Notes under the pieces: model-generated
Told to the model about the DNA's origin: nothing
Databases searched by the model: none
What the model saw: only the letters and a program-made list of their open reading frames with translations
Made by a program: the position numbers and the translations under genes
Assembly (NCBI GenBank): GCA_035651475.1
Contig: DASRFP010000002.1
Span: 46,597-110,596, forward strand
Source of the DNA: Terriglobales bacterium
GTDB lineage: Bacteria; Acidobacteriota; Terriglobia; Terriglobales; Acidobacteriaceae
Direction: 5' to 3'
DNA length: 64,000 nucleotides
Part shown: piece by piece, positions 2,362-37,102 of the stretch
Layout: the number at the start of each line of letters is the position of its first letter
How positions within the stretch are numbered: the stretch's first letter is position 1

Positions 2362-2419
2362 CCTGTCGCTCGGAACCGCAAACTGAAGTAACCTCCACAC
2401 GAATAGCTGAAAAGGTCAC

Positions 2420-2448
2420 TATGAGAGCACATGTCTCGTGCTCTCATA
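2420..2448 (+). promoter_or_regulatory. perfect 11-bp inverted repeat with the ABC-operon start codon in its 7-nt loop
   Basis: TATGAGAGCAC (2420-2430) / loop ATGTCTC (2431-2437) / GTGCTCTCATA (2438-2448). The ATG of the first ATPase gene is the first triplet of the loop. Confidence 0.3.
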
Positions 2449-3267
2449 AATATTTTTGACCTGACGGTGTGTTACCGGCCAAAATCCGGCGATCCCGTTG
2501 TTGCTCTGGACGGGGTTAGCCTCCGGTTATGGGCGGGCGAAATTGTCGGAATACTCGGCGAATCTGGTTCGGGAAAGAGTACGCTGGCATCTTCGATTAT
2601 TCAGCTACTTTCGGCAAAGAGCGAGCGTCACGGCTCAGTTCTTTTTCAAGAGCGCGAGCTTACACAAATGAACGAACACGAATTGCGAAGAATTCGTGGC
2701 CGCCACATCTCACTTGTCCCGCAAGACCCTGCCATTTCCTTGAATCCGATTATTCGTGCGGGAACACAGATCGCCGAGGTATTGCGCGCTCACCTCCCAC
2801 TGAATCGCAAGGAGCGAAAAGATCGGGTTCTGGAATTATTACGCCAGGTAGGATTCGACGACCCCGATCGGATCGCCGCTTCATATCCCCACCAGCTCAG
2901 CGGCGGACAGAGGCAGCGAGTGGTAATTGCACAGGCGATTGCCTGCCGCCCGGATTTGATCATTGCCGACGAACCGGTGAGCAAGTTGGATTCGCCGCTG
3001 CAAGGGCAGTTGATTGAACTCATACGGACACTTGTTCGCCAGAACAACACGGCTTTGCTCTGGGTTACCCACGATCCTGCGACACTTGTCGGGTTTGCCG
3101 ACCGAATTGCGGTGATGCAAAAGGGGCGCATTGTCGAGGAAGGCAAGCCGCAGGAGATTTTCAGGCGGCCTGCTGACGCTTATACGGCGACGTTCATGCA
3201 GTTATCGCGAGAACTGGCGCTTGGCTCAGTTGATGCTAGAACCCGGGCGGCAAATTATGTCGAGTGA
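2431..3267 (+). CDS. ABC transporter ATP-binding protein, peptide/nickel (DppD/OppD-like)
   Basis: Walker A GESGSGKST, signature LSGGQRQR, Walker B LIIADEP. It is the first gene of a five-gene importer operon. Confidence 0.9.
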   Translation: MSRALINIFDLTVCYRPKSGDPVVALDGVSLRLWAGEIVGILGESGSGKSTLASSIIQLLSAKSERHGSVLFQERELTQMNEHELRRIRGRHISLVPQDPAISLNPIIRAGTQIAEVLRAHLPLNRKERKDRVLELLRQVGFDDPDRIAASYPHQLSGGQRQRVVIAQAIACRPDLIIADEPVSKLDSPLQGQLIELIRTLVRQNNTALLWVTHDPATLVGFADRIAVMQKGRIVEEGKPQEIFRRPADAYTATFMQLSRELALGSVDARTRAANYVE

Positions 3268-4105
3268 TCTGAATTTTTTCGAAAGTAAGACGCCGTTGCT
3301 TCGAGTTCGCGGGCTGAGCAAGTGCTACTTCGTTCGGAAGACACTTTGGGGAAAGCGTGCTCTGATTCCGGCAGCGGTGGACATCAGTTTCGAGATTTCC
3401 GCTGGGGAAACACTAGCACTGGTTGGAAGCTCGGGCTCAGGAAAATCTACCGTAGCGCGTTGCGTCACCAGGCTAGAGAAACCTGACGCAGGCGAAATCT
3501 GGCTTGGAGACACTGACATCGTCGGGCGTAATACCCGCGAGTTGCGCCCATTCCGCAGCCACATTCAGATGGTATTTCAGGATCCTGCGACCGCGATGAA
3601 CACGAGAATGTCCGCTGCCCAAATCATTGAGGAGCCGCTGCTGATTCGCGACCGAGGCCGCAGGGCGGACCACAGACATCACGCGGCAGAACTCATGAAA
3701 GAAGTCGGGCTTTCTCCAGACTGGCTCGACCGGCGAATTTCGGAATTCAGTGGCGGGCAGAAGCAGAGGATTGCGATTGCGCGCGCATTGGTACTTCAGC
3801 CCAGACTGCTGGTGCTCGATGAAGCGCTAACAGGACTCGACATTCGTACGCTCGTGCAACTTATCGAGCTATTACTCGAAGTTCAGCGAAAGCACGCTTT
3901 GGGTTACTTACTAATTTCGCATGACTTGGCCGTGGTCAGGCGAAGCGCAGATAGGATCGCTGTTATTTCTCAGGGAAAGATCGTGGAAGCGGGTACAGCG
4001 TCTGAGATCCTGTCGAACCCCGCCCAACCGGAAACTCAGTCGTTGGTTGCTGCCGGAGAACACTTCCGAGCGGCACTCGCAAAAGCGCACGGAGCGTCAG
4101 CGTGA
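3257..4105 (+). CDS. ABC transporter ATP-binding protein, peptide/nickel (DppF/OppF-like)
   Basis: In-frame ATG at 3257 (MSSDLNFF..) overlaps the upstream stop. Walker A GSSGSGKST, signature FSGGQKQR, Walker B LLVLDEA. The track start at 3131 is an upstream extension that overlaps the previous gene. Confidence 0.9.
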   Translation: MSSDLNFFESKTPLLRVRGLSKCYFVRKTLWGKRALIPAAVDISFEISAGETLALVGSSGSGKSTVARCVTRLEKPDAGEIWLGDTDIVGRNTRELRPFRSHIQMVFQDPATAMNTRMSAAQIIEEPLLIRDRGRRADHRHHAAELMKEVGLSPDWLDRRISEFSGGQKQRIAIARALVLQPRLLVLDEALTGLDIRTLVQLIELLLEVQRKHALGYLLISHDLAVVRRSADRIAVISQGKIVEAGTASEILSNPAQPETQSLVAAGEHFRAALAKAHGASA

Positions 4106-5079
4106 AGTACCTGGCTCGGCGCTTATTGAGGGCGGTTCTGCTCCTATGGGGGGTTTCGATTTTGTGCTTCCTGTTCACCCAGCTAGCCCCGGGCAGTTTT
4201 TTTGACGAGATGCGCTTGAACCCGCAAATCTCGCCCGAAACCATTACTCACTTACAGGAGCGCTATGGGCTCGACAAGCCACTTTTAACTCGCTACGCGA
4301 GGTGGACTGCGTCGCTGGTGCGAGGAGATCTTGGTTACTCACTGGCGTATAACGCACCGGTTGAGCCTTTGCTTGTTCTGCGCGCGGAAAACACTCTTCT
4401 ACTGACGTCAGTGGCGATGTTCCTGACATGGCTGATCGGGGTGCCACTTGGTGTATGGACAGCTAACACGCGCGGCAAATTGTTCGACCGGTTCATCGGA
4501 ACCGGAAACTCCTTGCTCATTTCAATTCCTGAAATCGTGATCGCAGTCACACTGCTTGCAATTGCGGTTCGAACGCGAGCGGTTCCGGTCGGGGGGATGG
4601 CGTCGTTGGGTGCAGACGAGCTTTCGGGTTGGGCAAAGGCGCAAGACCTTTTCCTTCACATGCTACTGCCGGTTTCAATTCTCGTGCTCAGTGGCGTCGC
4701 AATCGTTGAGCGACATGTGCGAACAAGCGTGATTGAAGTACTCGAAACACCATGCATCCAAGCCGCCCGTGGACTTGGGATAAACAAAACACGACTTCTA
4801 TTTCGGCATGTTCTGCCGCTTGCGGCAAATCCTGCGATTTCATTGTTCGGCTTTTCATTGGCTGGGCTGCTGGGCGGCTCGTTGCTAGTCGAAGTCCTGT
4901 GTGGATGGCCAGGTCTCGGGCCACTGATTCTCGAGGCAACATTGTCTCGCGATTTGTATGTCGTGATCGGCGCCGTGATGTTTTCGGCCTTGTTCATGCT
5001 CGCGGGGAATATCGTGGCGGATCTGCTTTTAGTTGCTTGCGATCCGCGCATACGCGCAGGGGAAGCCGATGCGGCGTAA
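4102..5079 (+). CDS. ABC transporter permease (DppB/OppB-like)
   Basis: GTG start overlaps the upstream TGA (GTGA). The protein has multiple hydrophobic spans and begins MKYLARRLLRAVLLLWGVSIL, typical of BPD_transp_1 peptide permeases. Confidence 0.85.
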   Translation: MKYLARRLLRAVLLLWGVSILCFLFTQLAPGSFFDEMRLNPQISPETITHLQERYGLDKPLLTRYARWTASLVRGDLGYSLAYNAPVEPLLVLRAENTLLLTSVAMFLTWLIGVPLGVWTANTRGKLFDRFIGTGNSLLISIPEIVIAVTLLAIAVRTRAVPVGGMASLGADELSGWAKAQDLFLHMLLPVSILVLSGVAIVERHVRTSVIEVLETPCIQAARGLGINKTRLLFRHVLPLAANPAISLFGFSLAGLLGGSLLVEVLCGWPGLGPLILEATLSRDLYVVIGAVMFSALFMLAGNIVADLLLVACDPRIRAGEADAA

Positions 5080-6088
5080 GCTCGTTTTTGGCCTACTTAT
5101 CGCTGCGCTGATTGCGCTTCACGCGGCCATCGTCTTCGCCGGATTTATCGCGCCATATGACCCCGCAACTCAAAACCGCGATATCGCGTACGCTCCGCCG
5201 ACGCGTTTGCACTTCGTTGACTCCGGCGGATTTCACTTGCGTCCGTTCGTTCACGGGGCAGTCGTGGATGCTGATGGGTATGGCGAGGACCGGAGTCACG
5301 AATATCCGCTGCAGTTCTTTAATCGCGGGGCAACCTACAAAATTCTCGGCGTGATTCCGGCGAATCTTCATTTGTTTGGCGTGCGATCTCCGGGGCAGGT
5401 TTTTTTGTTCGGCACAGATTCTTACGGGCGCGATGAATTGTCGCGGCTTTTGTATGGCGGGCAGATTTCATTGGCCGCGGGTTTGCTGGCTACCTTTCTT
5501 ACGTTGGCCGCAGCGCTCGTAATCGGCACTGTTTCCGGCTACTACGGCAGATGGATTGATGAATCGCTGATGGGCTCGGCAGAGTTATTTTTAGCTCTTC
5601 CCTGGTTTTATTTTTTGGTTGGTCTCAGAGCATTTTTGCCACTTCATCTGAGCCCGACAAATACATTTCTGCTGATCATTGCAGTGATCGGAGTGATCGG
5701 ATGGGCACGACCGGCGCGGTTGATCCGCGGAATTGTACTTAGCGCGCGCAATCGCAATTACGTTCTTGCGGCTCGGGGTTTTGGCGCGTCAGACTTTTAC
5801 TTACTGCGCAGGCATGTCGTACCCGAGACGTTGGGCGTCATTCTTACCCAAGCTGCTGTGCTGGTACCGCAATATGTGGCGTCTGAAGCTGTGCTGTCAT
5901 TTTTCGGATTAGGGATTGCCGAACCGGTACCGAGCTGGGGCAATATGCTTAGCACCTTGCAGCAGTACAACGTGCTCGTCGCTTACCATTGGCTTCTGGC
6001 TCCGGCGTTCGCACTGGTAGTTACTTCGGTTACGTACTGGCTTATGGCCGACGCCATCCATCACTGGTTACAATCTCATTCAATCTAA
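5069..6088 (+). CDS. ABC transporter permease (DppC/OppC-like)
   Basis: ATG 5069 (MRRKLVFGLLIAAL..) overlaps the upstream stop. Polytopic membrane protein in operon context. Confidence 0.85.
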   Translation: MRRKLVFGLLIAALIALHAAIVFAGFIAPYDPATQNRDIAYAPPTRLHFVDSGGFHLRPFVHGAVVDADGYGEDRSHEYPLQFFNRGATYKILGVIPANLHLFGVRSPGQVFLFGTDSYGRDELSRLLYGGQISLAAGLLATFLTLAAALVIGTVSGYYGRWIDESLMGSAELFLALPWFYFLVGLRAFLPLHLSPTNTFLLIIAVIGVIGWARPARLIRGIVLSARNRNYVLAARGFGASDFYLLRRHVVPETLGVILTQAAVLVPQYVASEAVLSFFGLGIAEPVPSWGNMLSTLQQYNVLVAYHWLLAPAFALVVTSVTYWLMADAIHHWLQSHSI

Positions 6089-6112
6089 CCAAGTTCTGTG
6101 GGGAAGGGCGTT

Positions 6113-7891
6113 ATGAAGACCATAGCTCGCCTTGCCCTATTTGTGTGCCTGATCGCAACCTTTGCAGCGGCTTCCGGGCCTGCTGCTGCGCCGTTAAGCC
6201 CGTCGGAGCAAGTACTACGGGTAACAGATGAAGTTGGGCACTACGGGGGCCGACTTGTCATTGGGCAGCGCGCTGAGCCCAAGACGCTGAATCCAGTTAC
6301 CGCCGCTGATGCCGTTTCGCGCGAGGTGATTGGGCGATGCAATGCCGACTTGATCACGATTAATCGGCTTTCCCAAAAAACAGAGCCGGCGCTAGCGGAA
6401 TCATGGAAGACCTCGGCCGACGGCCGCAGCTTTACGATTCATCTCCGCAAAGGCATTCGCTTTTCCGACGGACAGGCCTTCGACGCTGACGACGTTGTTT
6501 TTTCTTTCCAGCTGTATCTCGACGAAAACATCGGCTCTCCGCAGCGTGATCTGCTGGTCATCGATGGCAAGCCGCTGACGGTTACGAAGCTTGATCAGTA
6601 CACGGTTCGCTTCACATTGCCGAAGCCGTACGCTGCCGCTGAAAGGCTTTTCGATGGACTCGCTATTCTGCCGAAGCATCTTCTCGCAGCGCCGTACAAA
6701 GGCGGCAGATTTGCGGCGATGTGGTCGTTAAACACGCCGCCATCGGAGATTGCAGGACTTGGCCCATTTCGGCTGAAGGAGTACGTGCCGGGGCAGAAAA
6801 TCGTGCTGGAACGGAATCCGTATTACTGGAAAGCTGATCGAGAAAACCACCGCCTGCCATACCTGGACGAGCTGGTGTTCGTATTCGTTGGCGGAGAAGA
6901 CCAACAGGTGATGCGCTTTGAAGCCGGCGAGACCGATCTGATCAGCCGGCTTAGCTCGGAAAATTACTCAATGCTTTCGAAAGAGCGGTCGCGCGAGGGC
7001 TGGCAACTCGCCGACCTTGGCCCAAGCCTTGAATACAACTTTCTCGTATTTAACTTGAACGATGTCGATTCGAAGAAGCTCGGAGAGGTCGCGATCAAAC
7101 AGGCTTGGTTCCGTAACTTGAAATTTCGCGAGGCTGTTTCAGCCGCCATCGATCGTGAATCGATTGTGAAGCTCGTGTACGGCACCCGGGGAACACCCTT
7201 ATGGGGCAATGTTGGACCCGGGAACAAGCTGTGGATGGATAGTTCAATTCCGCACCCGAAGCGGTCGATCGAGAACGCCCGCCAGTTGCTGCAATCTACC
7301 GGTTTCTCGTGGAACGGCTCTGGTCAATTGCTCGATGCTTCAGGCAGGCTCGTCGAGTTCTCGATCGTTACAAGTTCTTCGAACACACAGCGGATGAAAA
7401 TGGCCACGCTGGTGCAAGATGACCTCTCGCACCTCGGGATGCAGGTGCATGTTGTACCACTTGATTTTCGCGCCATGCTCGACCGCGTGTTCCAGAGCTT
7501 CGATTATGAAGCGGCAATAATGGGCTTGGGGGGAGGAGATCCTGATCCGAATCCTGAGATGAACGTATGGCTCTCAAATGGCGCCACCCACATTTGGCAT
7601 TTGAATGAAGCGAAACCCGCGACAGCATGGGAGAGCGAAGTGGATCAACTGATGCAGGAGCAGATGGTCACGCTCAACTACCGGAAGCGCAAACGGCTAT
7701 ACGACCGGGCGCAGGAGCTGATTTCACAAAATCTTCCGTTCATTTTTTTGGCGACTCCCGATGTTCTAGTCGGGGCGAAGGGGCAGGTGGGGAATTTTCA
7801 TCCGGCAGTGCTCGATCATTACACGCTCTGGAATGCTGACGAGCTCTACCTGCGCCAGAACGATGGCGTGGAGCGGGCCGGGCTCAGGTGA
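6113..7891 (+). CDS. ABC transporter substrate-binding protein, family 5 (peptide/nickel binding)
   Basis: ATG 6113 gives the signal peptide MKTIARLALFVCLIATFAAASG. Its length and motifs (RFSDGQAFDADDVVFSF, NPYYW) fit SBP_bac_5. Confidence 0.85.
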   Translation: MKTIARLALFVCLIATFAAASGPAAAPLSPSEQVLRVTDEVGHYGGRLVIGQRAEPKTLNPVTAADAVSREVIGRCNADLITINRLSQKTEPALAESWKTSADGRSFTIHLRKGIRFSDGQAFDADDVVFSFQLYLDENIGSPQRDLLVIDGKPLTVTKLDQYTVRFTLPKPYAAAERLFDGLAILPKHLLAAPYKGGRFAAMWSLNTPPSEIAGLGPFRLKEYVPGQKIVLERNPYYWKADRENHRLPYLDELVFVFVGGEDQQVMRFEAGETDLISRLSSENYSMLSKERSREGWQLADLGPSLEYNFLVFNLNDVDSKKLGEVAIKQAWFRNLKFREAVSAAIDRESIVKLVYGTRGTPLWGNVGPGNKLWMDSSIPHPKRSIENARQLLQSTGFSWNGSGQLLDASGRLVEFSIVTSSSNTQRMKMATLVQDDLSHLGMQVHVVPLDFRAMLDRVFQSFDYEAAIMGLGGGDPDPNPEMNVWLSNGATHIWHLNEAKPATAWESEVDQLMQEQMVTLNYRKRKRLYDRAQELISQNLPFIFLATPDVLVGAKGQVGNFHPAVLDHYTLWNADELYLRQNDGVERAGLR

Positions 7892-8478
7892 ACTCTGCCG
7901 TCAAACTGCAACGTGAGCGTGAAGCGCAATGGCCCGACGAGCGACTGGTTTCCGAATGCCTGAAAGGAAATCAGGAGGCGTGGTCAGCTCTGATCGATAA
8001 GTATAAGAACCTGATCTATTCAATTCCCATCAAGCTCCGCATGTACGAAGATGCGCCGGATATTTTTCAGGCGGTGTGCGTCGATCTGCTCGCAGGCCTT
8101 CCCAAGCTGCGTGATCCAAAGGCGCTCCCGAAATGGTTGATGCAGGCCTGCTACCACAGGTGCCTGCAATATCGCCGGCGGTCAGACAAGCACCCACAAC
8201 TGACGAATGAAAACGGCGAGGAACTTCAGCTGGCTTCGGAAGGTCCGCTTCCTGAGCGCATGCTGGCCGAGTTGGAGAAGGAACAGATGGTGCGAGACGC
8301 GATCGTGGAACTGAATCCGCGCTGTGAACAGATGGTCCGCATGTTGTTTTTTGAGAATCCGCCGCGTCCATACGAGGAAGTTGCGCGTGAACTGAAGCTC
8401 GCCACCGGCTCGATTGGATTTATTCGCGGACGCTGCCTGCAGAAATTAAGAAAACAGCTAGAAAAGCTGGGGTTCTGA
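7888..8478 (+). CDS. ECF-type RNA polymerase sigma-70 family factor
   Basis: Region 2 is present (LVSECLKGNQEAWSALIDKYKNLIYSI) and so is the region 4 HTH (PYEEVARELKLATGSIGFIRGRCLQKLR). The GTG start overlaps the TGA of the binding-protein gene. Confidence 0.85.
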   Translation: MNSAVKLQREREAQWPDERLVSECLKGNQEAWSALIDKYKNLIYSIPIKLRMYEDAPDIFQAVCVDLLAGLPKLRDPKALPKWLMQACYHRCLQYRRRSDKHPQLTNENGEELQLASEGPLPERMLAELEKEQMVRDAIVELNPRCEQMVRMLFFENPPRPYEEVARELKLATGSIGFIRGRCLQKLRKQLEKLGF

Positions 8479-8479
8479 A

Positions 8480-11341
8480 ATGAGCGTGAAAGCCGCGCAA
8501 CAGACGGAATCTGCCGCAATGGTCGAGCGGCTGATCGCCGCTGGCGACAATGCATCCCTGGGCAAGCTCATTGCCAATCATCCGCTTATTGAATGGGACC
8601 ACATTGTTTCTGCGCTCGCCGACCGGGTGCGCCAGGAAATCCACATCGACATAGCAGGCGCTGCGCGCGTGGCAGATATTGCCATGCTCGTGGCTGAGGC
8701 GATCGGAAGCAAGACCGCTCTCGCGCGAAGCCAACGGGCGAAGGCGAACGTGCTTTATGCGATGGACCAGCATGCCGCGGCGATCGACATGCACGGCAGC
8801 GCAGCAGGCCTATTTGAGGCGGCCGGAGAGAAGCACGAACTGGCGCGCACCCTAAGTGGTTCGATTCAACCTTATCTGCTGCTTGGCCGGTACGACGAAG
8901 CGCTCGTGGCGGCCGAACGTGCGCGTTCGATTTTTTCCGAACAGGCGAACGATTGGCGGCTGGCGAGGCTCGAGATCAACATTGGGAACATCTATCAGCG
9001 GCAGGACAGGTTCTCAGATGCTTTACAGCATTACCAGCGCGCGTACGACGACCTGGTCACGCGCGACGATGCCGAAGGGCTGGCCGCTGTTCTCAGCAAC
9101 CTTGCACTCTGCTGCATTTTCCTGAATGACTTTCCCAAGGCGCTGGACTTTCACCAGAAGGCGCGCCTGCACTGCGAACAAAAGGGAATGCCAATCCTGG
9201 TCGCCTACGCGGATTACAACATCGCGTATTTGTATTACCTGCGGGGAGAGTACGGCCGAGCGATCAAGATGCTGCGCGAGGCGGCGATTAGCGCCAAGAA
9301 AGCGAAGGACTCGTATCAGCTCGCTCTATGCGACCTGGACCTTTCCGAGATTTACATCGAGGTCAATCTAAGTGCTGAGGCGGTCGACCTGGCACACAAA
9401 GCGCACGAGGCATTTCAGCAACTCGGTTTTGGATATGAGAGTGCTAAGGCGCTGGCGTTTGCAGCCATCGCAGCGAGCCGCATTGGACAGGCGTTTGAGT
9501 CATTGGATCTATTCACTCGCGCAAAGGAGATGTTCGTCCGCGACAACAATCAGGTCTGGCCTTCGCTCATCGACCTGTACAAAGCTTTGGTGCTGCTGAA
9601 CGAAGGGCGACTGTTTGAAGCGCGCCAGCTCTGCGCGAGCGCGCAGGAGTTTTTCAGTTCTTCGACGCTGCGGCGAAAAGCAGCGCTTGCGGACCTGCTG
9701 CTCGCGCGCATTCTGTTTCGCATGAACGACCTTGCTTCAGCACGGCAGCGATGCCAGGACACGCTTCAGGCGTTGGCTGAACTGGACTCGCCGATGCTGC
9801 TCTACGATGCCGAGTTCCTGCTGGGACAAATCGAGCGCACTGCCGGCAAGTCGGATGCCGCGTACGAGGCATATTCCCGCGCGCGTGCGGCGCTCGAGAT
9901 GTTGCGTGGCAGCCTGCGCGGCGAAGAGCTCAAGATTTCCTTTTTCAATAACAAGCTGGAAGTTTATGAGCACCTGGTTGATCTATGTCTCCTGCGGCCG
10001 AACGCGCTCCAGGAAGCATTCGGCTATATGGAACAGGCCAAGTCACGCAGCTTGATGGATCTGCTGGCTCAGCCGGTCCACACCGTCACTGACGCCGATG
10101 CCGGGCAGAGCGAACTAGTCCGCTCAATTCGAAACTTACGCGAGGAGTTGAACTGGTACTACAACCTGATCGAGCGCGAACAACTGCGTCCGGAAGAGAA
10201 TTCCCCGGCGCGAATCGAAAGCCTGGAACAGCAGGCGAGGGCGCGCGAGGCGGAGTTACTGCGATCTTTACACGAGGCCACCGACCTGGAAATCAATCAG
10301 GCCGGGCTGCAACGTGCACCGGCAAGCATTTCGATAGAAGAAATTCGCCAGACACTCCCTGAGGAAACGGTCCTTATTGAATATTTTTGCGTTCAAGATC
10401 GGGTACTCGCATGTGTGCTCAGTCGCGATAGCATGCAAGTGTTCCCCATGACTGTGCAGTCGCGGGTGCAGAAAATACTGCAGCTATTACAGTTCCAGCT
10501 ATCCAAATTTCGCCTCGACCCAAAATATGTGAGCGCATTTCAAGATTCGCTACTTGAGTCGACGCAGGCACACCTGAAGAATTTGTATCAGGAACTAATT
10601 GCGCCGTTGCGGGGCTCCCTGAATGCTAAGCACCTTGTCATCATTCCGCACGGCATATTGCACTATGTTCCGATTCACGCATTGCACGATGGCGAGACCT
10701 ATTTAGTGGACAAGTTCACGGTCTCGTATGCGCCAAGCGCAAGCATCTTCGCGATGTGCCAAACGAAGGAAGTAAATGCCTCGGGGGAAGCACTCGTCAT
10801 GGGTATTGCGGATGCGCAGGCACCCTCGATTCTCGACGAAGTAGCAGCGCTCAAAGCAATTTTGCCCAATGCCCGATTATTCGCTGGCGAAGACGCCACA
10901 CAAGCGGTGTTACAAGAATATGGCCAGCAAAGCCGGATCGTACACATCGCAACACACGGGTACTTCAGGCAGGATAACCCTATGTTTTCTTCGATACGCC
11001 TGGGAGACTCTTACTTAAGTCTTTACGACTTATACCACCTCAAGTTACCGGTCGAGCTAGTTGTCTTAAGTGGATGCGCCACCGGCCTCAATGTCATCAA
11101 GCCCGGGGATGAGCAGATCGGATTAGTGCGAGGGTTGCTGCAAGCCGGTGCTCAATCGATGGTTTTGAGCTTGTGGGACGTGCACGACGCGAGTACGAAG
11201 GAATTCATGATCTCGTTCTACAGCGAGTTGCAGCGGGGTGCCACAAAATCGGCGGCATTGCAGCGGGCGATGATCGGCTTACGCCAAAAGTACCCACATC
11301 CATATTACTGGGCTCCTTTCTTATTGATAGGAAAGGGATAA
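8480..11341 (+). CDS. TPR-repeat CHAT-domain (caspase-like) protease
   Basis: The ATG lies one nt after the sigma stop. The N-terminal ~600 aa are helical TPR-like repeats. The C-terminus carries the CHAT dyad IVHIATHGYF (His codon 10955-10957) and VVLSGCATG (Cys codon 11075-11077). There is no signal peptide. Confidence 0.85.
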   Translation: MSVKAAQQTESAAMVERLIAAGDNASLGKLIANHPLIEWDHIVSALADRVRQEIHIDIAGAARVADIAMLVAEAIGSKTALARSQRAKANVLYAMDQHAAAIDMHGSAAGLFEAAGEKHELARTLSGSIQPYLLLGRYDEALVAAERARSIFSEQANDWRLARLEINIGNIYQRQDRFSDALQHYQRAYDDLVTRDDAEGLAAVLSNLALCCIFLNDFPKALDFHQKARLHCEQKGMPILVAYADYNIAYLYYLRGEYGRAIKMLREAAISAKKAKDSYQLALCDLDLSEIYIEVNLSAEAVDLAHKAHEAFQQLGFGYESAKALAFAAIAASRIGQAFESLDLFTRAKEMFVRDNNQVWPSLIDLYKALVLLNEGRLFEARQLCASAQEFFSSSTLRRKAALADLLLARILFRMNDLASARQRCQDTLQALAELDSPMLLYDAEFLLGQIERTAGKSDAAYEAYSRARAALEMLRGSLRGEELKISFFNNKLEVYEHLVDLCLLRPNALQEAFGYMEQAKSRSLMDLLAQPVHTVTDADAGQSELVRSIRNLREELNWYYNLIEREQLRPEENSPARIESLEQQARAREAELLRSLHEATDLEINQAGLQRAPASISIEEIRQTLPEETVLIEYFCVQDRVLACVLSRDSMQVFPMTVQSRVQKILQLLQFQLSKFRLDPKYVSAFQDSLLESTQAHLKNLYQELIAPLRGSLNAKHLVIIPHGILHYVPIHALHDGETYLVDKFTVSYAPSASIFAMCQTKEVNASGEALVMGIADAQAPSILDEVAALKAILPNARLFAGEDATQAVLQEYGQQSRIVHIATHGYFRQDNPMFSSIRLGDSYLSLYDLYHLKLPVELVVLSGCATGLNVIKPGDEQIGLVRGLLQAGAQSMVLSLWDVHDASTKEFMISFYSELQRGATKSAALQRAMIGLRQKYPHPYYWAPFLLIGKG

Positions 11342-11464
11342 GTAGGCGCTCGAAAAGTGTTACTCCCCTATATTTCTCCCCGTTGTGGGTTCCCCTTATG
11401 ACTAGAACCAAACAGAAGCGTTGGACGGCAACAATCAGTCGTTAAACAACACTTGTGAGGGTTA

Positions 11465-12121
11465 ATGATGGAGCATTTTTCGGAACACGCATGGGCTGAT
11501 TTCGTTCGCGGAATCAGCAACTCTGAACGTGAGGAGATGCACGCCCACCTCGCTAGCGGATGTAACGACTGCGCAGTTATTCGTGATACCTGGAAACAGG
11601 TACACACAGTCGCACTTCGCGAGGGGCACTATGCTCCCTCTGAAGATGCGGTTCGGATGGTAAAGCTGGAGTTCGCGGCGCAAGCATTTGACAAAGCACA
11701 ACAACCGGTGCTGGCCGAACTGGTCTTCGATACGTTCGGGAAGACCGCTTTTGCCGGGGTACGCTCGGCAGCGGCGGCGGCCAGGCAGATGGTCTACGAA
11801 GCTGACGGGCTCGCCGTTGACCTCAGGTTCGACAGCCCCGCGTCTTCACAGCGAATCTTTCTCACCGGGCAGGTACTAGATAGGCGAGTACCTCGCACAT
11901 CGATAGAAGATTCCGTGATCATTTTGTGGACTCATAAAGGGCTCGCCGTTGCAGAAACCAAGGCCAATGCTTTTGGGGAGTTTCACCTGGAATTGGAGCC
12001 TCAGGACAATCTGCGGCTTTCCATACAGGTGGTAGGTCGTGCGCTTATCAGGATACCGCTGGCAAACCTAAGGCCAGAAAGAGGTTCGGACTTTGCCGGC
12101 GGGTCCGACGTTAGTAACTAG
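11465..12121 (+). CDS. soluble zinc-finger protein, possible anti-sigma factor (ZAS-like N-terminus, beta-sandwich-like C-terminus)
   Basis: The N-terminus has HAHLASGCNDC (H-x4-C-x2-C, close to the H-x3-C-x2-C ZAS motif). No hydrophobic span was seen. It lies next to the ECF sigma gene. The function is inferred. Confidence 0.45.
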   Translation: MMEHFSEHAWADFVRGISNSEREEMHAHLASGCNDCAVIRDTWKQVHTVALREGHYAPSEDAVRMVKLEFAAQAFDKAQQPVLAELVFDTFGKTAFAGVRSAAAAARQMVYEADGLAVDLRFDSPASSQRIFLTGQVLDRRVPRTSIEDSVIILWTHKGLAVAETKANAFGEFHLELEPQDNLRLSIQVVGRALIRIPLANLRPERGSDFAGGSDVSN

Positions 12122-12203
12122 CGGCGTGTTACACGTGTAAGTAGCGAAGGGGAAGGTACCAACATAGACTTTTGGAACCGGCTCGATTGGGGAATAAGGG
12201 GAT

Positions 12204-13538
12204 ATGAACAAGAAATCTACAAAATCGCAAATTAGCTCCAGGTTCAGACGAGCTGTGATGTGCCTGGTTATTTTAGTCGTACCGATGTTTGCACAAGAAG
12301 CCAATGCTCAGGCGCGCTTAATTGTCCGTGATTCATTGGGTTTGAGGGGACTCAACTTGACGTGCCTTTTGCTGGGCTGCAAGGTCAATAACAGCTTGGG
12401 CGACCCGCAAGGGCAGCTGTTTGTGGTTACATTTCCGAGGTTACTGAACCCTCTGACCGCGCTGCTCAAGCTGAATATCAACGTCCTCGGCATTCTGGAT
12501 GTTGAGGTCGACCAGACGGTTTACTCAACCAGCCCGAACGCCAACGTGCCGGGATCGTATCTGACGGACAAGGCTCCGACCTCATACTACGGCTCGACGG
12601 TATGGCACGGGTATCTGGTGCAGCCAGGGAATCAGTTGATTGAGACCGCTTCTGCGCAGTCCGCATTTGGAGCAACAGGCTCCGGCGTTACGGTCGCGGT
12701 CATTGACACCGGTGTAGATCCGAATCACCCTGTTTTTCAGGGAGTGCTGGTCAACGGATATGACTTTACGCGCAACGTCGCCGGCGGATCCGAAGATTCC
12801 GACGTAAGCGCTTCGCCGAATTTGAGCAACGCGCAAGAAGCGGATGTCCAGCAGAGGACGGTCGCGGTGCTGGACCAGCGGACGGTGGCCGTGCTGGACG
12901 GCGGCAATTACTCGGCGTTTGGCCACGGCACCATGACTGCGGGAATTGTTCACTTAGTTGCTCCGCAGGCGAAGATCATGCCACTGAAGGCATTCAGCGC
13001 GAGCGGCGCCGGCTACGAATCTGACATTCTGCGCGCGATCTACTATGCGGTAGCCAATGGCGCACAGGTAATGAACATGAGCTGGGATTTCTCGAGTCCA
13101 TCGAACGAGTTGGCCTCAGCTATTAAGTATGCGCAAAGTAAGGGTGTGGTTGCTGTAGCTTCGGCGGGCAACGATGGTCAGTACGAGTACGTATATCCCG
13201 GCGCGTTGCCTGGGGTAATCAACGTAGCTTCTACTTCCGATCAGGATATTCAGTCTACGTTCACTAACTATGGTGCACCGCCGGTATTCATGGCAGCGCC
13301 TGGCGAAGGAATCATGACGGCTTATCCCTGGGGGACTTACGCCGCGGGGTGGGGAACATCATTCAGCACACCGTTCGTTGCGGGAACGGCAGCGTTGATG
13401 ATGGGCAAGAACGGCGGGTGCTCCTATGCGGGAGTTGGAAATGGACTGGCGCATGCGGACGTTATCTTCAACCCATCGCTGGGCTGGGGGCGTCTGGACA
13501 CTTACTCAGCGCTATCGGCCTGTCACGGCCTACTGTGA
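12204..13538 (+). CDS. secreted S8 family serine peptidase (subtilase)
   Basis: Signal peptide ..VILVVPMFAQEANAQ. The catalytic triad motifs are VAVIDTGVDPNHP (Asp), HGTMTAGIV (His) and GTSFSTPFVAGTAALM (Ser). Confidence 0.9.
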   Translation: MNKKSTKSQISSRFRRAVMCLVILVVPMFAQEANAQARLIVRDSLGLRGLNLTCLLLGCKVNNSLGDPQGQLFVVTFPRLLNPLTALLKLNINVLGILDVEVDQTVYSTSPNANVPGSYLTDKAPTSYYGSTVWHGYLVQPGNQLIETASAQSAFGATGSGVTVAVIDTGVDPNHPVFQGVLVNGYDFTRNVAGGSEDSDVSASPNLSNAQEADVQQRTVAVLDQRTVAVLDGGNYSAFGHGTMTAGIVHLVAPQAKIMPLKAFSASGAGYESDILRAIYYAVANGAQVMNMSWDFSSPSNELASAIKYAQSKGVVAVASAGNDGQYEYVYPGALPGVINVASTSDQDIQSTFTNYGAPPVFMAAPGEGIMTAYPWGTYAAGWGTSFSTPFVAGTAALMMGKNGGCSYAGVGNGLAHADVIFNPSLGWGRLDTYSALSACHGLL

Positions 13539-13541
13539 GCA

Positions 13542-14228
13542 ATGAGCGTAACTTTTAGCCCTCCGAGCGCAGATGCAGGATTGCTGCTCTTTCGAGTCAA
13601 AGAACTCGAGGAGCAGCAATCTGTTTTTCGCAACTCGCTTGTCTGCGCGTTCAATCAGTTACTTGATCTGAAAGACATCAACACAGGCGTGCACAGCACC
13701 AGACTGGCAGAGTGGGCGCTCCGCGTAGCGCGCAAGCTGAATATTCCAGAAGAGCATATGTACCAGGTGGAAGTTGCAGCGCTGCTGCACGACATTGGCA
13801 AGGTAGGCGTGCCGGATGCAATTCTGAAGAAGCAGGGGCCGCTTACGCAAGAAGAACGTGCTCTGATCAATCGCCATCCCGAATATAGCTGGTCAATTCT
13901 GCGGCTTTTGCCTGGGCTCGAGGATGCGAGCCTTTACACACTGCACCATCACGAGAGCGTGGATGGAAGCGGATATCCGGCAAAGCTGAAGGGAAGCGAT
14001 ATCCCTCTTGTGTCTCGTATCGTTTCCGTCATCGATGCGTATGACGCCATGGTTTCAAACCGCTGCTACCGCAAAGGGCTGCCGCACACGGAGGCGGTCC
14101 GCAGGTTGCTTGAGAGCTCGGGAACGCAATTCGATGTCGATGTGGTACAAACCTTCATTCCAATCGCTGAGCAGGAAGCCGCGGATGTATTCGCTGCTGC
14201 AGGAACCAGCACTACTGCCGCTCTCTAA
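13542..14228 (+). CDS. HD-GYP domain protein (putative c-di-GMP phosphodiesterase)
   Basis: LHDIGKVGVPD and HHESVDGSGYP motifs are present. Only a 3-nt gap separates it from the subtilase gene. Confidence 0.85.
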   Translation: MSVTFSPPSADAGLLLFRVKELEEQQSVFRNSLVCAFNQLLDLKDINTGVHSTRLAEWALRVARKLNIPEEHMYQVEVAALLHDIGKVGVPDAILKKQGPLTQEERALINRHPEYSWSILRLLPGLEDASLYTLHHHESVDGSGYPAKLKGSDIPLVSRIVSVIDAYDAMVSNRCYRKGLPHTEAVRRLLESSGTQFDVDVVQTFIPIAEQEAADVFAAAGTSTTAAL

Positions 14229-14370
14229 TTCCAGATTCCTGCGCTTAGATTCCCGCAAATTGAACTGTAGACTCACGACGCTAAGGGCATAGTAGAGCAT
14301 CCCATTCTGGCTTGCAGCCATCCGAACTATGCGGCCCGTAAGCATCGATTTTGTACCAGTGGAGGTTCGG

Positions 14371-15045
14371 ATGAGAACACTTGGAATTTTCGGCGCAGCT
14401 GCCTTGTTTCTGTTCATGATGGCGGCGCCAGCTGCACATTCGCAGGACAACAGGGACGAGAACAAGCCCGAGGCTCAGGAGTCGCCGAAGGCGAAGGATC
14501 AGAAAGCGCCAAAGACCGACAACAGAACGCAACAGGACAACAGACCCCAGCAAGACAATCGAGCCAGGCAGGACGAAAAGGCACAGCAGAAAGATCAACA
14601 GAGGCAGCAGCAAAATCAGACCAAAGAAAATCAAAAGGCCCAGCAACAGCAAGACCGCAATATGAGAGATCAGCAGCGCGAGCAGCAACACCCTGCCGAT
14701 AATCGGCAAATGGACAATCGCCAGATGCGCCCAGCTGATAACCGTCAGGATATGGGGCGCGATCAGAACCGGCACGACGCAGCTGACCGCGGACGCCACA
14801 TTCCCGACGATCAATTCCGGTCGCACTTTGGCCGGGAGCACAGATTCCATGTTCAGCGCGATCGCGTCTTCAATGTTTCACAGCCCGTGGTAGTGTACGG
14901 TGGTTATTCGTTCCAATTAGCCGAGCCATGGCCGTCAGATTGGTCTTACGATGACGACTGCTACATCGACAACGCGGATGGTGAGTACTACCTGTATGAC
15001 GTAATGCATCCTGGCATTCGCATTGCGGTTTTTGTGGTCGATTAG
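14371..15045 (+). CDS. secreted low-complexity Q/N/R/D-rich protein with a conserved-looking aromatic C-terminal domain
   Basis: ATG 14371 gives the signal peptide MRTLGIFGAAALFLFMMAAPAAHSQ. About 120 aa of DNRxQQ-type low complexity follow, then ..IPDDQFRSHFGREHRFHV..YGGYSFQLAEPWPSDWSYDDDCY..YYLYDVMHPGIRIAVFVV. Confidence 0.55.
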   Translation: MRTLGIFGAAALFLFMMAAPAAHSQDNRDENKPEAQESPKAKDQKAPKTDNRTQQDNRPQQDNRARQDEKAQQKDQQRQQQNQTKENQKAQQQQDRNMRDQQREQQHPADNRQMDNRQMRPADNRQDMGRDQNRHDAADRGRHIPDDQFRSHFGREHRFHVQRDRVFNVSQPVVVYGGYSFQLAEPWPSDWSYDDDCYIDNADGEYYLYDVMHPGIRIAVFVVD

Positions 15046-15069
15046 TATTTGTTCAACAGCAGTTTGGAA

Positions 15070-15096
15070 GGAAGGCGACGAGCCTTCCTTTTTTTT
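15070..15096 (+). terminator. rho-independent terminator
   Basis: Stem GGAAGGC, loop GACGA, stem GCCTTCC, followed by T8. It lies 25 nt after the stop at 15045. Confidence 0.6.
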
Positions 15097-15130
15097 GCGC
15101 ACTATCGAGCGCAGGCATCGAAAAGATGTC

Positions 15131-15523
15131 ATGCGGAATTCAAAAAAGGCCGCGAGAAGGAAATCCGGCAGGAGATGGGTGGCGCGAGTGACCACAGATT
15201 CAACTCATCCCCCGGAGGGTTTATTCACAAAGGACGCAGCCACAATCGCTCACACTCTTGCCTCGAAGAGGGTGTCCCCTAAAGGCCCAGGCTCTGGAAT
15301 GCGAATGCTCACGTATTTCATTAACCGGGCGGACGGAATCTTACGGCCAGACGGCGTCGGGAACTCGAAAAAGCGAAGAGGCTGCTTTCGCAGAAAATTC
15401 CCAAGAAGCATGGGAGTAGCGATGGCAAAGCTGCTTAGAGTCTTTTCGTCGAGAAGCCCGTTTTGCCAGCTCAGAAGCGTGCTTACGATTTCCTATCCAC
15501 AAGCACAACCGCCCGTCGGTTGA
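15131..15523 (+). pseudogene. DUF3175-family gene with an apparent 1-nt frameshift (or assembly error)
   Basis: From ATG 15131 the protein reads ..VTTDSTHPPEGLFTKDAATIAHTLA..GMRMLTYFINRA, as in DUF3175. After ~15331 the family-like continuation (G)RNLTARRRRELEKAKRLLSQKIPKK..* (stop 15436-15438) is in the -1 frame. The annotated frame continues with unrelated sequence to 15523. Confidence 0.55.
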
Positions 15524-15578
15524 TAACCATCCATAAAAAAGATCGACCCAACCAAAATTTAAAGATTAGGAGCAGGAG

Positions 15579-16088
15579 ATGAAAATCGAGAATTTCCGCG
15601 ATCTCTTCGACGTTGAACTGCGTTATGCATACGATTGTGAACAGAAGCTGGTGAAGAAAGGCTTGCCCACTATGATTGAAGCATCCAGCTCGCCAGAGCT
15701 CCGCAATGCCTTTGAACAACACCTTCAGGAAACCCGGACCCACGTCAGCCGGCTGGAACGTGTGTTCTCTATTGTTGGCGTCGATGCTAAGCCAGAGGAC
15801 AACGATGTTTTTGACGAAATGAGCAGCGCGGTTAAAGATGCCGTTGGCGAAGTCGAGGGGGGCAGCCTGCGGGACGCCGCGTTGATTGTCGGCGGAAACA
15901 TGGTCGAGCACTATGAGATGGCGATTTACGGATCTTTAATTTCCTTTGCACAACAACTTGGCTTCCAGGACGTGGCACAGCTACTGCAGCAAACACTGGA
16001 CGAGGAGAAGGCCGCAGACGCGAAGCTGACGCAACTCGGGGAAACGAGAATCAATTCGAGCGCAGTGCGTGAGCGCCGGGCAGCATAA
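15579..16088 (+). CDS. ferritin-like DUF892 protein (YciE/YciF family)
   Basis: MKIENFRDLFDVELRYAYDCEQKLVK..LQETRTHVSRLERVF..HYEMAIYGSL matches the four-helix-bundle stress protein family. An AGGAG RBS is present. Confidence 0.8.
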   Translation: MKIENFRDLFDVELRYAYDCEQKLVKKGLPTMIEASSSPELRNAFEQHLQETRTHVSRLERVFSIVGVDAKPEDNDVFDEMSSAVKDAVGEVEGGSLRDAALIVGGNMVEHYEMAIYGSLISFAQQLGFQDVAQLLQQTLDEEKAADAKLTQLGETRINSSAVRERRAA

Positions 16089-16290: not shown

Positions 16291-16578
16291 CTACTTTGCA
16301 AGTTCGTCGCGATTCTGTTTCGCCCAGTCGCCATCTTTGGGCACGGGCTTAAGCGGCGGCCCGCCCTGGGTGCCGCAAGCGCATGGGCCTTCGGTCTTCG
16401 CTTCGGTCATGCACGCGCACGATTTATCTCTGAGGCAGGCACAGACGTACACGACCTTGCTGCTGTCCTGCTTCTCACCGCTCATTTGAGTTTGAGTTTG
16501 CGATCCGCTACTCGAGGGCAGGAAGGTGAGCAGCGACAATAATGCGAAAACGGCAGCCAGTCGTGTTCCTTTTTTCAT
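16291..16578 (-). CDS. small secreted Cys-rich protein (three C-A-C motifs), possible metal binder
   Basis: Signal peptide MKKGTRLAAVFALLSLLTFLPSSSG, then ..VYVCACLRDKSCACMTEAKTEGPCACGTQGG... The + ORFs over this region are antisense shadows. Confidence 0.5.
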   Translation of the reverse strand: MKKGTRLAAVFALLSLLTFLPSSSGSQTQTQMSGEKQDSSKVVYVCACLRDKSCACMTEAKTEGPCACGTQGGPPLKPVPKDGDWAKQNRDELAK

Positions 16579-16791
16579 TGGGTTTTCCTGGAACGTCTAT
16601 TCGCGGGAGAGTAGCACTCGCGGCCGCAGAACGCAACATCCACCGGGGCTCGGATTTTGTATAGCAACTGAGGGTTGAGCAAGCCTTACCACGTAAAGTA
16701 TTCCGAATTCGATAACCGCCTACTATCGAAAAAGCGCTTTTGTCGTATTCCAATCGTGCGTGCAGTATCCTTTGCTCGAACTTGAAATTCC

Positions 16792-17220
16792 ATGACTGAA
16801 ACGCTTGTACAGCCGGAATCGAGTATGATGCCAGTCGAGATTCACCGTGCAATCAGCATAGTATGGCTATCCGTTTCGCTGATTGTTATTGCGACAATCG
16901 GCAATTGGTGGCTCGTTCCGCCCAAACATCCAGCGTTTTCTGTGATCCTGCAGATTTTCAACGTTGCCTTTTTTGCGTTTCTAATCCGGAAGATTAGTCG
17001 AGGCCGCAATTGGGCGCGTATCATCTGGCTTGTTCTCTTCGTGGGTGGGTGCTGCGTAGTTATGCTCTTTGCTCTGGTTTCCAAGGTCTACCGTGCCGGA
17101 GTTTTCTACTCGCCTTTTTCAATGGTTGTCTTTGTTGTCCAGGCTGCAATTCAGTTCTATGCCACTGTTCTACTGTGTACCTCTAAGGGACGGGCTTGGT
17201 TCTTGCGAGCCGCTGGATGA
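16792..17220 (+). CDS. hypothetical integral membrane protein
   Basis: Four hydrophobic segments. I recognise no motif. Confidence 0.45.
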   Translation: MTETLVQPESSMMPVEIHRAISIVWLSVSLIVIATIGNWWLVPPKHPAFSVILQIFNVAFFAFLIRKISRGRNWARIIWLVLFVGGCCVVMLFALVSKVYRAGVFYSPFSMVVFVVQAAIQFYATVLLCTSKGRAWFLRAAG

Positions 17221-17373
17221 CGATAAATCGCGAAATCACTCATCGATTGGGAGGAGACCGGCCCGAAGAATCGGCCGTCAATGGTCAGCCGTCTTAGAAT
17301 CGATTTTGGACTATTCGAAGAGCGGAGAGCAAGAACACAAGGCTTAAAAGCTTGTGCAATTAACCGAGGAACT

Positions 17374-36957: not shown

Positions 36958-36987
36958 CAGTCGCTCAGCCTTCAGCCTCCGCCACCG

Positions 36988-37077: not shown

Positions 37078-37102
37078 TCACAAAGGGAACCGCTCCACAA
37101 CG

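Follow-up and report, generated by a model that had tools for sequence, protein, structure and literature searches.

Can a caspase-like protease control a sigma factor where no CRISPR (clustered regularly interspaced short palindromic repeats) system is present? The question is raised by a stretch of 64,000 nucleotides from an acidobacterium of the order Terriglobales (assembly GCA_035651475.1, contig DASRFP010000002.1, positions 46,597 to 110,596). The whole stretch is here called the window, and coordinates are counted from its first letter. In it, the gene for a sigma factor of the extracytoplasmic function (ECF) type is followed by genes for a tetratricopeptide repeat (TPR)-CHAT protease, a 218-residue protein with a zinc-finger motif (P218 below), a secreted subtilase of family S8 and an HD-GYP phosphodiesterase, and is preceded by genes for an ATP-binding cassette (ABC) importer of the Opp type. 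In type III-E CRISPR loci the protease Csx29 cleaves Csx30, the inhibitor of an ECF sigma factor (PMC10028731), and a preliminary description of the window, made from the sequence alone, proposed that the same logic is present here independently of CRISPR.

The survey reported here finds that many uncultured soil Acidobacteria carry a conserved block in which a sigma factor, a CHAT protease and a small zinc-finger protein are encoded together. As to its function, we put forward, as a reading that could well be right but that we would not yet call probable, that the CHAT protease cleaves P218, acting as a soluble anti-sigma factor of the zinc-binding anti-sigma (ZAS) type, and so releases the sigma factor.

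Gene organisation of the cluster

All the genes and motifs of the cluster lie on the plus strand. The sigma factor (196 residues, 7888..8478) is recognised by TIGR02937 with a score of 75.2 bits, where 42.9 is the cutoff, in an alignment that spans residues 30-191 of 196, and by Sigma70_r2 and Sigma70_r4. It is thus an ECF (group IV) sigma factor, and its closest relatives in the PDB are RpoE and SigW. Its GTG start codon at 7888 overlaps the TGA at 7889-7891 of the preceding gene (GGTGA, 7885-7891), an overlap of 4 nt that is also found in loci L001, L003, L004, L005 and L052. The TPR-CHAT protease (953 residues, 8480..11341; Pfam CHAT 5.6e-67, TPR_12) has its ATG at 8480, leaving a gap of 1 nt after the sigma stop (8478), and in other loci, likewise, the two genes overlap or lie close together. 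The gap between the CHAT and P218 genes contains a promoter-like motif, M1 (11367..11399). P218 (11465..12121) is followed by a second motif, M2 (12128..12170), in the gap before the S8 subtilase (444 residues, 12204..13538; Pfam Peptidase_S8 4.8e-37). A gap of 3 nt then separates the end of the S8 gene (13538) from the start (13542) of a stand-alone HD-GYP phosphodiesterase (228 residues, 13542..14228; Pfam HD_5 (PF13487) 7.7e-41). In a Kyte-Doolittle scan, no segment resembling a transmembrane helix was found in the sigma factor, the CHAT protein, P218 or the HD-GYP protein; signal-peptide-like N-termini are present only in the subtilase and in the solute-binding protein (SBP) of the importer. 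The open reading frames (ORFs), overlaps, catalytic residues and motifs given in the preliminary description were all found at their positions when checked against the ORF list, the sequence and the individual residues.

The window contains no CRISPR-like tandem array over its 64 kb, and no cas domain in any ORF of at least 200 residues. Nor were cas genes or arrays found among the called flanking genes in ten context look-ups of related loci. The claim that the window is free of such genes, and the wider one that the cluster is CRISPR-independent, are therefore both upheld.

Conservation of the cluster

A word-index search returned about 230 relatives of P218, the few with organism names being Terriglobales. 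A hidden Markov model (HMM) of the family, run against 1.84 billion representative proteins, gave 3181 matches at E<=1e-3 and 376 at E<=1e-30; the best 150 of these matches are mostly full-length, in proteins of around 200-240 residues. When one genome per species was scanned, 46 loci were found, all in Acidobacteriota and all in metagenome-assembled genomes (MAGs).

The gene order is strongly conserved. Four relatives with 50-61% identity have the ten genes, including the five of the importer, in the order of the window and between unrelated flanks, apart from L003, which is without the two ATPase genes. A tblastn table of 51 related loci has all ten genes in order in 37, with 12 of the others cut by contig ends and only two real exceptions. 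These are L003, where the two ATPase genes are absent, and L044, where all five ABC genes are absent while sigma, CHAT, P218, S8 and HD-GYP are kept. Even distant members, with P218 identities of 33-36%, keep the block: the set of ten is complete in L052 and L055, contig ends interrupt L053 and L056, and L054 has the core with no importer upstream. The five genes for sigma factor, TPR-CHAT protease, P218, S8 and HD-GYP were found in the same order in 56 of the 56 loci surveyed, down to a P218 identity of about 33%, and the flanking genes vary between loci. The arrangement is far beyond chance, and is not a chance neighbourhood. A linkage of the sigma factor, P218 and S8 genes among relatives of the CHAT protein, which the preliminary description had suggested surveying, is thus borne out by the neighbourhoods. 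Its coupling of the cluster to the importer is true of most loci, in which an Opp-type importer does lie upstream of the core, and fails in L044 and L054, which keep the core. The conserved core therefore consists of five genes, and the importer is a frequent but dispensable companion.

The proteins of the block evolve at different rates. Across loci, P218 is the fastest (31-79% identity), which in our reading is as expected for a regulator-type protein, and HD-GYP the slowest (69-95%). A crude mirror-tree analysis, in which the pairs are not independent, gave residual rate correlations of 0.13 for sigma-P218, 0.39 for CHAT-P218 and 0.52 for P218-HD-GYP. The residuals fall into two groups, the permeases with sigma, and CHAT with P218 and HD-GYP, a grouping that is statistically unsound.

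No description of the block was found in the full-text literature searched, and the main text of a classification of ECF sigma factors (PMC7826278) makes no mention of CHAT, TPR, HD-GYP or subtilase.

The TPR-CHAT protein

The TPR repeats extend over residues ~97-480 and the CHAT domain over residues 697-952. Residues 1-95 are without family assignment, and Pfam gave no family match N-terminal to the TPR repeats. The CHAT domain (PF12770) has both residues of the caspase-like dyad: His826 (codon CAC, 10955-10957) in the sequence IATHG, and Cys866 (codon TGC, 11075-11077) in LSGCATG. Both are invariant in 121 of 121 CHAT sequences, so catalysis is under selection.

The likeness to Csx29 is limited to the CHAT domain. 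The NCBIfam model NF041237 scores 63.6 bits (1.6e-17) against a cutoff of 300, and the matches to Csx29 structures in the PDB (7zoq, with 7zoq_A at 1.7e-6, 7x8a and 8d9f) range from 1e-6 to 1e-4. The search with the CHAT protein returned only orthologues of at least 67% identity, and is therefore uninformative on remoter pairings of CHAT and sigma. The N-terminus of the CHAT protein (residues 1-130) was also considered as the true anti-sigma domain, and was rejected when hhalign against the N-terminal profile of P218 gave a probability of 0.2.

P218, a candidate anti-sigma factor

The preliminary description had P218 as a protein of 218 residues with an H-x4-C-x2-C motif and no transmembrane segment. 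The motif and the lack of a transmembrane segment stand; the length probably does not, because the homologues begin MEHF, which makes the second ATG, at 11468, the likely start and gives a protein of 217 residues. The motif consists of H28-x4-C33-x2-C36, with a further histidine at H4. H4, H28, C33 and C36 are invariant in 16 diverse homologues. In a larger set of 77 sequences, every member has the two His and the second Cys, and at least 90% have the first Cys.

The AlphaFold2 model of P218 (predicted local distance difference test, pLDDT, 80.6) has helices at residues 6-14, 21-29, 33-54 and 59-77, followed by a β-sandwich at 84-197. The C-terminal sandwich (approximately residues 85-198) resembles CarboxypepD_reg and immunoglobulin (Ig)-like domains, with weak Pfam CarboxypepD_reg matches in 34 of the 77 members. 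Foldseek with the whole protein returned only generic Ig-like and macroglobulin-like sandwiches, among them the metal-binding sandwiches CrdA, Zcp, CueP and SOD1 as matches of the C-terminal domain (E 3e-3 or weaker). The N-terminal domain was therefore modelled alone. It is predicted as four helices with a pLDDT of 91, and in a Foldseek search of the whole PDB ranks 1-14 are all complexes of anti-sigma factors with ECF sigma factors (E 0.27-4, template modelling score ~0.5). Thirteen of these are chains of the ZAS proteins ChrR and RslA, and rank 10 is RskA-SigK. In sequence comparison, the full-length profile found nothing among PDB sequences; the N-terminal profile found only RslA and AhpD (E ~1), so that RslA is the sole anti-sigma sequence match in the PDB, with its HxxxCxxC motif aligned to that of P218 across a gap of one residue (E 1.3). 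The only homologue that matches the Pfam family zf-HC2 (PF13490; 1.4e-5) is the one with the canonical H-x3-C spacing. On these models, P218 is plausibly a soluble ZAS-type anti-sigma factor.

A candidate cleavage site is also suggested by the model. The loop AGVRSAAAAARQ (A97-Q108 in the 218-residue numbering) lies in the β-sandwich and is among the most conserved segments of the protein. It belongs to a conserved stretch, ...FDTF..P.LAGVRSAAAAARQMVYEA..., whose G, R and R are invariant in 77 of 77 sequences. The pLDDT falls below 50 at residues 93-103 (217-residue numbering), which covers the start of the stretch through to the first invariant Arg and overlaps the loop in part. A conserved, apparently disordered loop bearing arginines is what would be expected of a site for recognition or cleavage by a protease.

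Promoter-like elements

M1 has the consensus TTTTT-N8-CCTATATTTTT-N13-(T)CCCTTAT, with a conserved A..AGA after it. The spacing is all but constant across 46 loci, the copy in the window having one extra C in the spacer, and M1 occurs only once in the 64 kb. It is still present in the distant loci L052-L054, whose proteins have diverged to 33-50% identity. Read as TATATTT, a spacer of 16 nt and CCCTTAT, it has the geometry of an ECF promoter.

Metagenome contigs were scanned for exact matches to the 20 specified bases of M1. The scan gave 108 stretches, of which 81 sites were fetched. At 57 of these 81 sites M1 lies between CHAT and P218 homologues, and at a further 13 it is associated with the module, which is cut by a contig end or rearranged, bringing the module-associated total to 70. 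Seven of the remaining sites are at other GC-rich loci, three are AT-rich and look like chance matches, and one has too little flank to judge. At three of the seven (L061, L092 and L112), the ATG of a 66-residue helical protein lies 7-11 nt after the second box, a distance that fits a transcription start there, and hence would fit M1 being a promoter. The 66-residue protein (MNxEERIRALSMKVAAAPDDSEEF...) is apparently leaderless and has no family match. The other four precede genes for a NusG paralogue, an asparagine synthase and a GT4 glycosyltransferase, in what looks like a locus of the exopolysaccharide (EPS) type.

In one rearranged lineage, an insertion of 5.6 kb carries a duplicated M1 and four genes. 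The insertion (in L106, with M1 copies at 554-586 and 6136-6168, and also in L067 and L089) follows approximately codon 28 of the P218 gene, and duplicates M1 and the 5' end of that gene. Its genes encode a fusion of the P218 N-terminus to a LuxR (GerE)-type helix-turn-helix, a PilZ protein, a protein of 447 residues and an FG-GAP repeat protein, the last two being putatively secreted. From its placement, M1 therefore marks a small set of genes, namely P218, S8 and HD-GYP together with genes related to matrix and cyclic di-GMP (c-di-GMP). We infer that it is read by the ECF sigma factor of the block.

M2 is of a different kind. It consists of a palindrome, TTAC-N4-GTAA, followed by GTAGCG-N18-TAGACT, with extra GTTAC/GTAAC half-sites upstream. 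It is found once per locus in 46 of the 50 loci scanned, that is, in the window and 45 of the 49 related loci that remained after L002 was dropped. M2 was not recognisable in the distant loci L052-L054, and is thus clade-specific. If TAGACT is taken as a -10 box, with the start some 7 nt beyond it, the centre of the palindrome lies about 41 nt upstream of the start. This suggests that M2 may be bound by a dimeric regulator not encoded in the block; a reading of M2 as an ECF promoter was also considered and seems less likely, its palindromic form fitting a dimeric regulator better.

The subtilase, the phosphodiesterase and the importer

The subtilase has the full catalytic triad of family S8, D168/H241/S386, in the contexts DTG, HGT and GTSF. 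N-terminal to the catalytic domain is a conserved region of ~100 residues with two invariant Cys. Its top NCBIfam match is mycosin, with 147 bits, under the cutoff of 278.75. Between the catalytic Asp and His, a 24-nt tandem repeat (12852-12899) encodes QRTVAVLD twice. The duplication is kept in 28 of 30 aligned orthologues, several with one conservative substitution, and three diverged copies occur in L047; the insertion is therefore old and has been retained. The HD-GYP protein has its HD at residue 83 and the sequence HHESVDGSGYP (HHExxDGxGYP) at 135-146, and contains no sensor domain.

The importer genes are also on the plus strand. The block begins with ATPase 1, of the Opp/Dpp D type (2431..3267; Pfam ABC_tran 1.3e-31), which is syntenic in the 37 complete loci. 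The ORF of ATPase 2 (3131..4105; ABC_tran 1.5e-33) is given from its earliest possible start; the real start is probably near 3260, orthologues having 279-283 residues. Permease 1 (OppB/DppB-like, 4102..5079; BPD_transp_1 1e-32) and permease 2 (OppC/DppC-like, 5033..6088; BPD_transp_1 1.1e-21, OppC_N) are likewise identified by Pfam and by synteny. The fifth gene encodes the SBP, a family-5 protein with a signal peptide, of the peptide/nickel/opine family (6098..7891; SBP_bac_5 1.2e-85). A perfect 11-bp hairpin with a T-rich tail (2420-2448) spans the ATG of ATPase 1. It could terminate transcription of the phosphoesterase gene upstream, mask the start codon, or do both. In L006-L009, the closest relatives, the start region of ATPase 1 is found again, with its ATG and the stem-forming TATGAGAGCAC. 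Rfam, searched at E<=1 over 2000-16000, gave one spurious microRNA match and no RNA element.

The NCBIfam scores of the SBP, 129.6 bits for Opp4A and 112-116 bits for NikA-type models, are all far under the cutoffs. Its best PDB match is the oligopeptide-binding AppA of Bacillus subtilis (2e-34), followed by proteins that bind α-galactosides, haem/glutathione and nickel. The preliminary description favoured an imported peptide as the ligand of the TPR region, by analogy with the RRNPP receptors, and remarked that there was no obvious propeptide gene. The latter remark holds: no conserved small ORF was found in the intergenic gaps or flanks, and a 15-codon ORF in the CHAT-P218 gap was rejected as a propeptide since it is not conserved in other loci. 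The imported-peptide idea itself has no direct support.

Import of nickel or another metal was also considered, the SBP scoring on NikA models near to Opp4A and a NicO permease lying upstream of sigma in L044. In that locus, at 4703-6300, sigma is preceded by fragments that by eye resemble remnants of IS200/IS605 transposases, and these in turn by a NicO-type permease, which has an HX4DH motif and a His-rich loop; an intact gene for an IS200/IS605-type transposase lies downstream (16370-17470). The nickel idea was set aside because this debris separates the NicO permease from sigma, and the adjacency looks like the scar of a deletion or insertion.

Proposed mechanism and alternatives

We tentatively propose the following sequence of events. 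The sigma factor, the cytoplasmic TPR-CHAT protein and the ABC importer would share one transcription unit, as suggested by the way in which the genes overlap or abut. P218, as a soluble ZAS-type anti-sigma factor, would hold the sigma factor inactive, a role assigned on account of its fold, its pattern of metal ligands and the strict way in which its gene is linked to that of sigma. The TPR region would sense a signal and so switch on the His/Cys dyad of the CHAT domain, which would cut P218, most plausibly in the conserved loop that bears the arginines and that is predicted to be disordered in its first half only; the fragment still bound to sigma would then be degraded. The steps of activation, cleavage and degradation are modelled on Csx29/Csx30/CASP-sigma and on the mechanism proposed for DdvA, an anti-sigma factor discussed below. 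The free sigma factor would transcribe from M1 and so drive three genes: that of P218 (a negative feedback), that of the secreted S8 protease and that of the HD-GYP phosphodiesterase. In some lineages it would act also on an M1 placed before an EPS-type operon led by the NusG paralogue, and in the rearranged lineage on the insert with the PilZ gene. The output is likely to be a change in extracellular proteolysis, in the level of c-di-GMP and in the production of surface or matrix material. Observed are the gene set and how it is conserved, the integrity of the dyad, a ligand set and a predicted fold like those of ZAS proteins, and where M1 is placed.

Several points weigh against this proposal. 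Its central steps, namely the binding of sigma by P218, the cleavage of P218 by the CHAT protease and the dependence of M1 on the sigma factor, are ones that we infer. The spacing in P218 is H-x4-C-x2-C rather than the canonical H-x3-C-x2-C of the ZAS motif, and zf-HC2 misses 76 of the 77 homologues; none of the Foldseek matches is significant by itself (E 0.27-4), and neither is the HMM match to RslA (E 1.3). The likeness to ZAS anti-sigma factors asserted in the preliminary description thus survives in the ligand set and in Foldseek ranks 1-14, and is weakened by the low strength of these matches and by a zf-HC2 count of 1 in 77. In addition, the P218 gene is not adjacent to sigma and has a promoter-like element of its own, which is unusual for a sigma/anti-sigma pair, and M1 is without the usual AAC/CGT signature of ECF promoters. 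The rate correlation of sigma with P218 is low (0.13), a value that, coming from a crude mirror-tree with non-independent pairs, counts weakly either way. None of the carriers found has been cultured, and their names are those of MAGs or metagenomes only. Furthermore, ZAS proteins of the RsrA and ChrR types can respond to stress without a dedicated protease.

The last point leads to the main alternative, which we regard as rather unlikely, in which P218 is itself the sensor, in the manner of RsrA or ChrR, and is made to free the sigma factor by thiol, oxidative or metal stress or by a ligand of its C-terminal sandwich. With the same limited probability, the CHAT protein would then be no gate, and would serve in turnover of sigma, act on another substrate or have a later role. 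The architecture of P218, a ZAS-like domain followed by a β-rich domain with no transmembrane segment, does mirror that of ChrR, its top structural match; the Cys/His ligands are invariant in the 16 homologues, and metal-binding sandwiches occur among the Foldseek matches of the C-terminal domain (E 3e-3 or weaker). That domain, however, has no conserved His, Cys or Met able to bind a soft metal in the 77-sequence set, many ZAS proteins are not redox sensors, and a P218 that senses by itself leaves unexplained why the CHAT gene strictly accompanies those of sigma and P218 and why its dyad is invariant. A different division of labour, which we consider distinctly unlikely, has the CHAT protein acting on the sigma factor directly, either sequestering it through the TPR or N-terminal region or cleaving it; P218 would, just as improbably, be a sigma-controlled accessory or a securin-like pseudosubstrate inhibitor of CHAT. 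The CHAT gene, 1 nt after sigma and tightly placed in other loci, does occupy the classical position of an anti-sigma gene, P218 is coupled more closely in (crude) residual rate to CHAT (0.39) than to sigma (0.13), and a pseudosubstrate holds separase, which is related to the CHAT proteases (PMC11506125, discussion). It is nevertheless P218 and not the CHAT protein that has the ZAS-like ligand set, and residues 1-130 of the latter have no profile similarity to the anti-sigma-like domain of P218 (hhalign 0.2) and no Pfam match before the TPR repeats.

The block might also be an anti-phage or abortive-infection system, in which infection triggers the protease, and a cyclic-nucleotide phosphodiesterase and a protease are the effectors. 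HD-GYP enzymes can indeed degrade cyclic dinucleotides, the window has a prophage-like region at a distance of 12 kb, and both characterised pairings of CHAT with an ECF sigma factor are in defence loci (PMC10028731, PMC11506125). The prophage is not, however, conserved beside the block, and the block is tied to an importer of nutrient type and a secreted protease. PADLOC gave only weak, generic domain matches and none at the level of a system, and the annotated flanks, which differ by locus, carry mostly genes of metabolism or housekeeping, such as those for melibiase, for the synthesis of sirohaem, for a TonB-type receptor and for glucokinase/glucose-6-phosphate dehydrogenase/aconitase; it is because of these two results that we hold a defence function to be highly improbable.

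To return to cleavage of P218 by the CHAT protease, a bolder version may be stated, which we regard as unlikely. In this, a free-standing, ligand-gated caspase-like protease would cut a soluble zinc-finger anti-sigma factor and thereby control an ECF sigma factor; its trigger would be an imported product of the cell's own secreted protease, so that a product-sensing loop would couple extracellular proteolysis to c-di-GMP and matrix; and modules of this kind would have provided the stock for the sigma arm of type III-E systems.

Two pairings of CHAT with an ECF sigma factor have been characterised, Csx29/Csx30/CASP-sigma (PMC10028731) and DdvA/DdvS (PMC11506125), both in defence islands, and the only trigger known from those papers is RNA bound to Cas7-11. 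If our proposal is true, soil Acidobacteria use the same logic widely, as an ordinary means of signalling. It would then offer a tractable system for finding what activates bacterial TPR-CHAT proteases, and a regulatory handle on extracellular proteolysis and matrix in an abundant, poorly studied soil phylum. The candidate protease and inhibitor are small and soluble, and so suited to reconstitution, and the block brings with it a candidate promoter and a candidate regulon (secreted protease, c-di-GMP hydrolysis, EPS genes). Should the mechanism be wrong, there is still a strongly conserved cluster that is undescribed in the literature searched.

Remainder of the window

Downstream of the block, at 14329-15045, is a gene for a protein of 238 residues with a hydrophobic, signal-peptide-like N-terminus, long Q/N/R/D-rich low-complexity repeats and a short C-terminal domain. 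As tblastn detects it in L006 and L007 only, it is placed outside the conserved block. Two large proteins of signalling type are encoded at 18978-21620 and 54644-57964, respectively a fusion of a Ser/Thr kinase to a PD40 β-propeller (880 residues) and an all-TPR protein (1106 residues). The prophage-like region (26500-53600), mostly on the minus strand, includes genes for a head-tail adaptor (31285-31911), a portal (34575-35825), the large subunit of terminase (39163-40668), a β-helix protein (40689-42929) and a protein of 1347 residues (42966-47009), and an S24 repressor-like gene (49493-50209); most of its other large ORFs are without family match. Between the portal and terminase genes, on the minus strand, a DUF3037 gene adjoins one for a HipA-like kinase (HipA_2; 36139-38002), and these may form a toxin-antitoxin or defence pair. 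No tRNA gene was found in the window.

Comparison with known systems

Some features of the block are familiar from regulated proteolysis and peptide signalling. In the DegS/RseP-RseA-sigmaE pathway, as in our proposal, a signal triggers proteolysis of the anti-sigma factor, the ECF sigma factor is freed and the remnant is degraded further; there the anti-sigma factor spans the membrane and the proteases are membrane serine and metalloproteases, whereas here the candidates are cytoplasmic and the protease has a caspase fold. With the RRNPP systems (Rap/NprR/PlcR/PrgX with Opp) the block shares a cytoplasmic TPR protein encoded beside an Opp-type importer, and a secreted protease. It differs in phylum, in having no propeptide gene in the gaps or flanks, in that its TPR protein is a protease and not a transcription factor or phosphatase, and in that the importer is dispensable (L044, L054).

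For P218, the nearest parallels are ChrR-SigE of Rhodobacter sphaeroides and RslA-SigL of Mycobacterium tuberculosis, which give the best structural matches to its N-terminal domain. ChrR is also soluble with a β-rich C-terminal domain, and its zinc ligands, which we take to be H6/H31/C35/C38, would follow the pattern of P218. Compared with both, P218 has one extra residue between the His and the first Cys, and the CHAT gene lies between its gene and that of sigma; its C-terminal domain is not a cupin but a sandwich like those of Ig and CarboxypepD_reg.

The closest comparisons for the block as a whole are the two characterised CHAT/ECF-sigma pairings. DdvA of Myxococcus xanthus is an anti-sigma factor that combines a ZAS domain with TPR-CHAT, and proteolysis by CHAT has been proposed as the step that releases the sigma factor DdvS (PMC11506125). 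The block is similar in bringing together an ECF sigma factor, a ZAS-type domain (ZAS-like here) and a TPR-CHAT with the canonical dyad in one regulatory unit. DdvA is, however, a single transmembrane polypeptide with its ZAS domain in the cytoplasm and its TPR-CHAT in the periplasm, whereas here the corresponding proteins are separate and soluble, with no transmembrane-like segment. DdvA controls an island of CRISPR and CBASS (cyclic oligonucleotide-based antiphage signalling system) genes, and DdvA-like proteins are limited to Myxococcota and one species of Comamonas in the survey of the same authors (PMC11506125). No DdvA chain occurs among the PDB sequence matches of the CHAT protein at E<=0.01.

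With the type III-E arm, Csx29/Csx30/CASP-sigma, the block shares a TPR-CHAT protein with a His/Cys dyad encoded beside an ECF sigma factor and a sigma inhibitor, here a candidate, and the proposed logic is the same in that a protease removes the inhibitor and the sigma factor is released. The components are nevertheless different. Cas7-11, a CRISPR array, other cas genes and Csx31 are all absent here, and the activator cannot be target RNA bound to Cas7-11. With 63.6 bits where the cutoff is 300, the CHAT protein is not an orthologue of Csx29. As candidate inhibitor the block has the ZAS-like P218, which is unrelated to Csx30, and no Csx30 chain is present among the 29 Foldseek matches of its N-terminal domain. 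Finally, the block adds an ABC importer, an S8 protease and an HD-GYP enzyme. It thus resembles both the type III-E arm and DdvA/DdvS, but is a member of neither.

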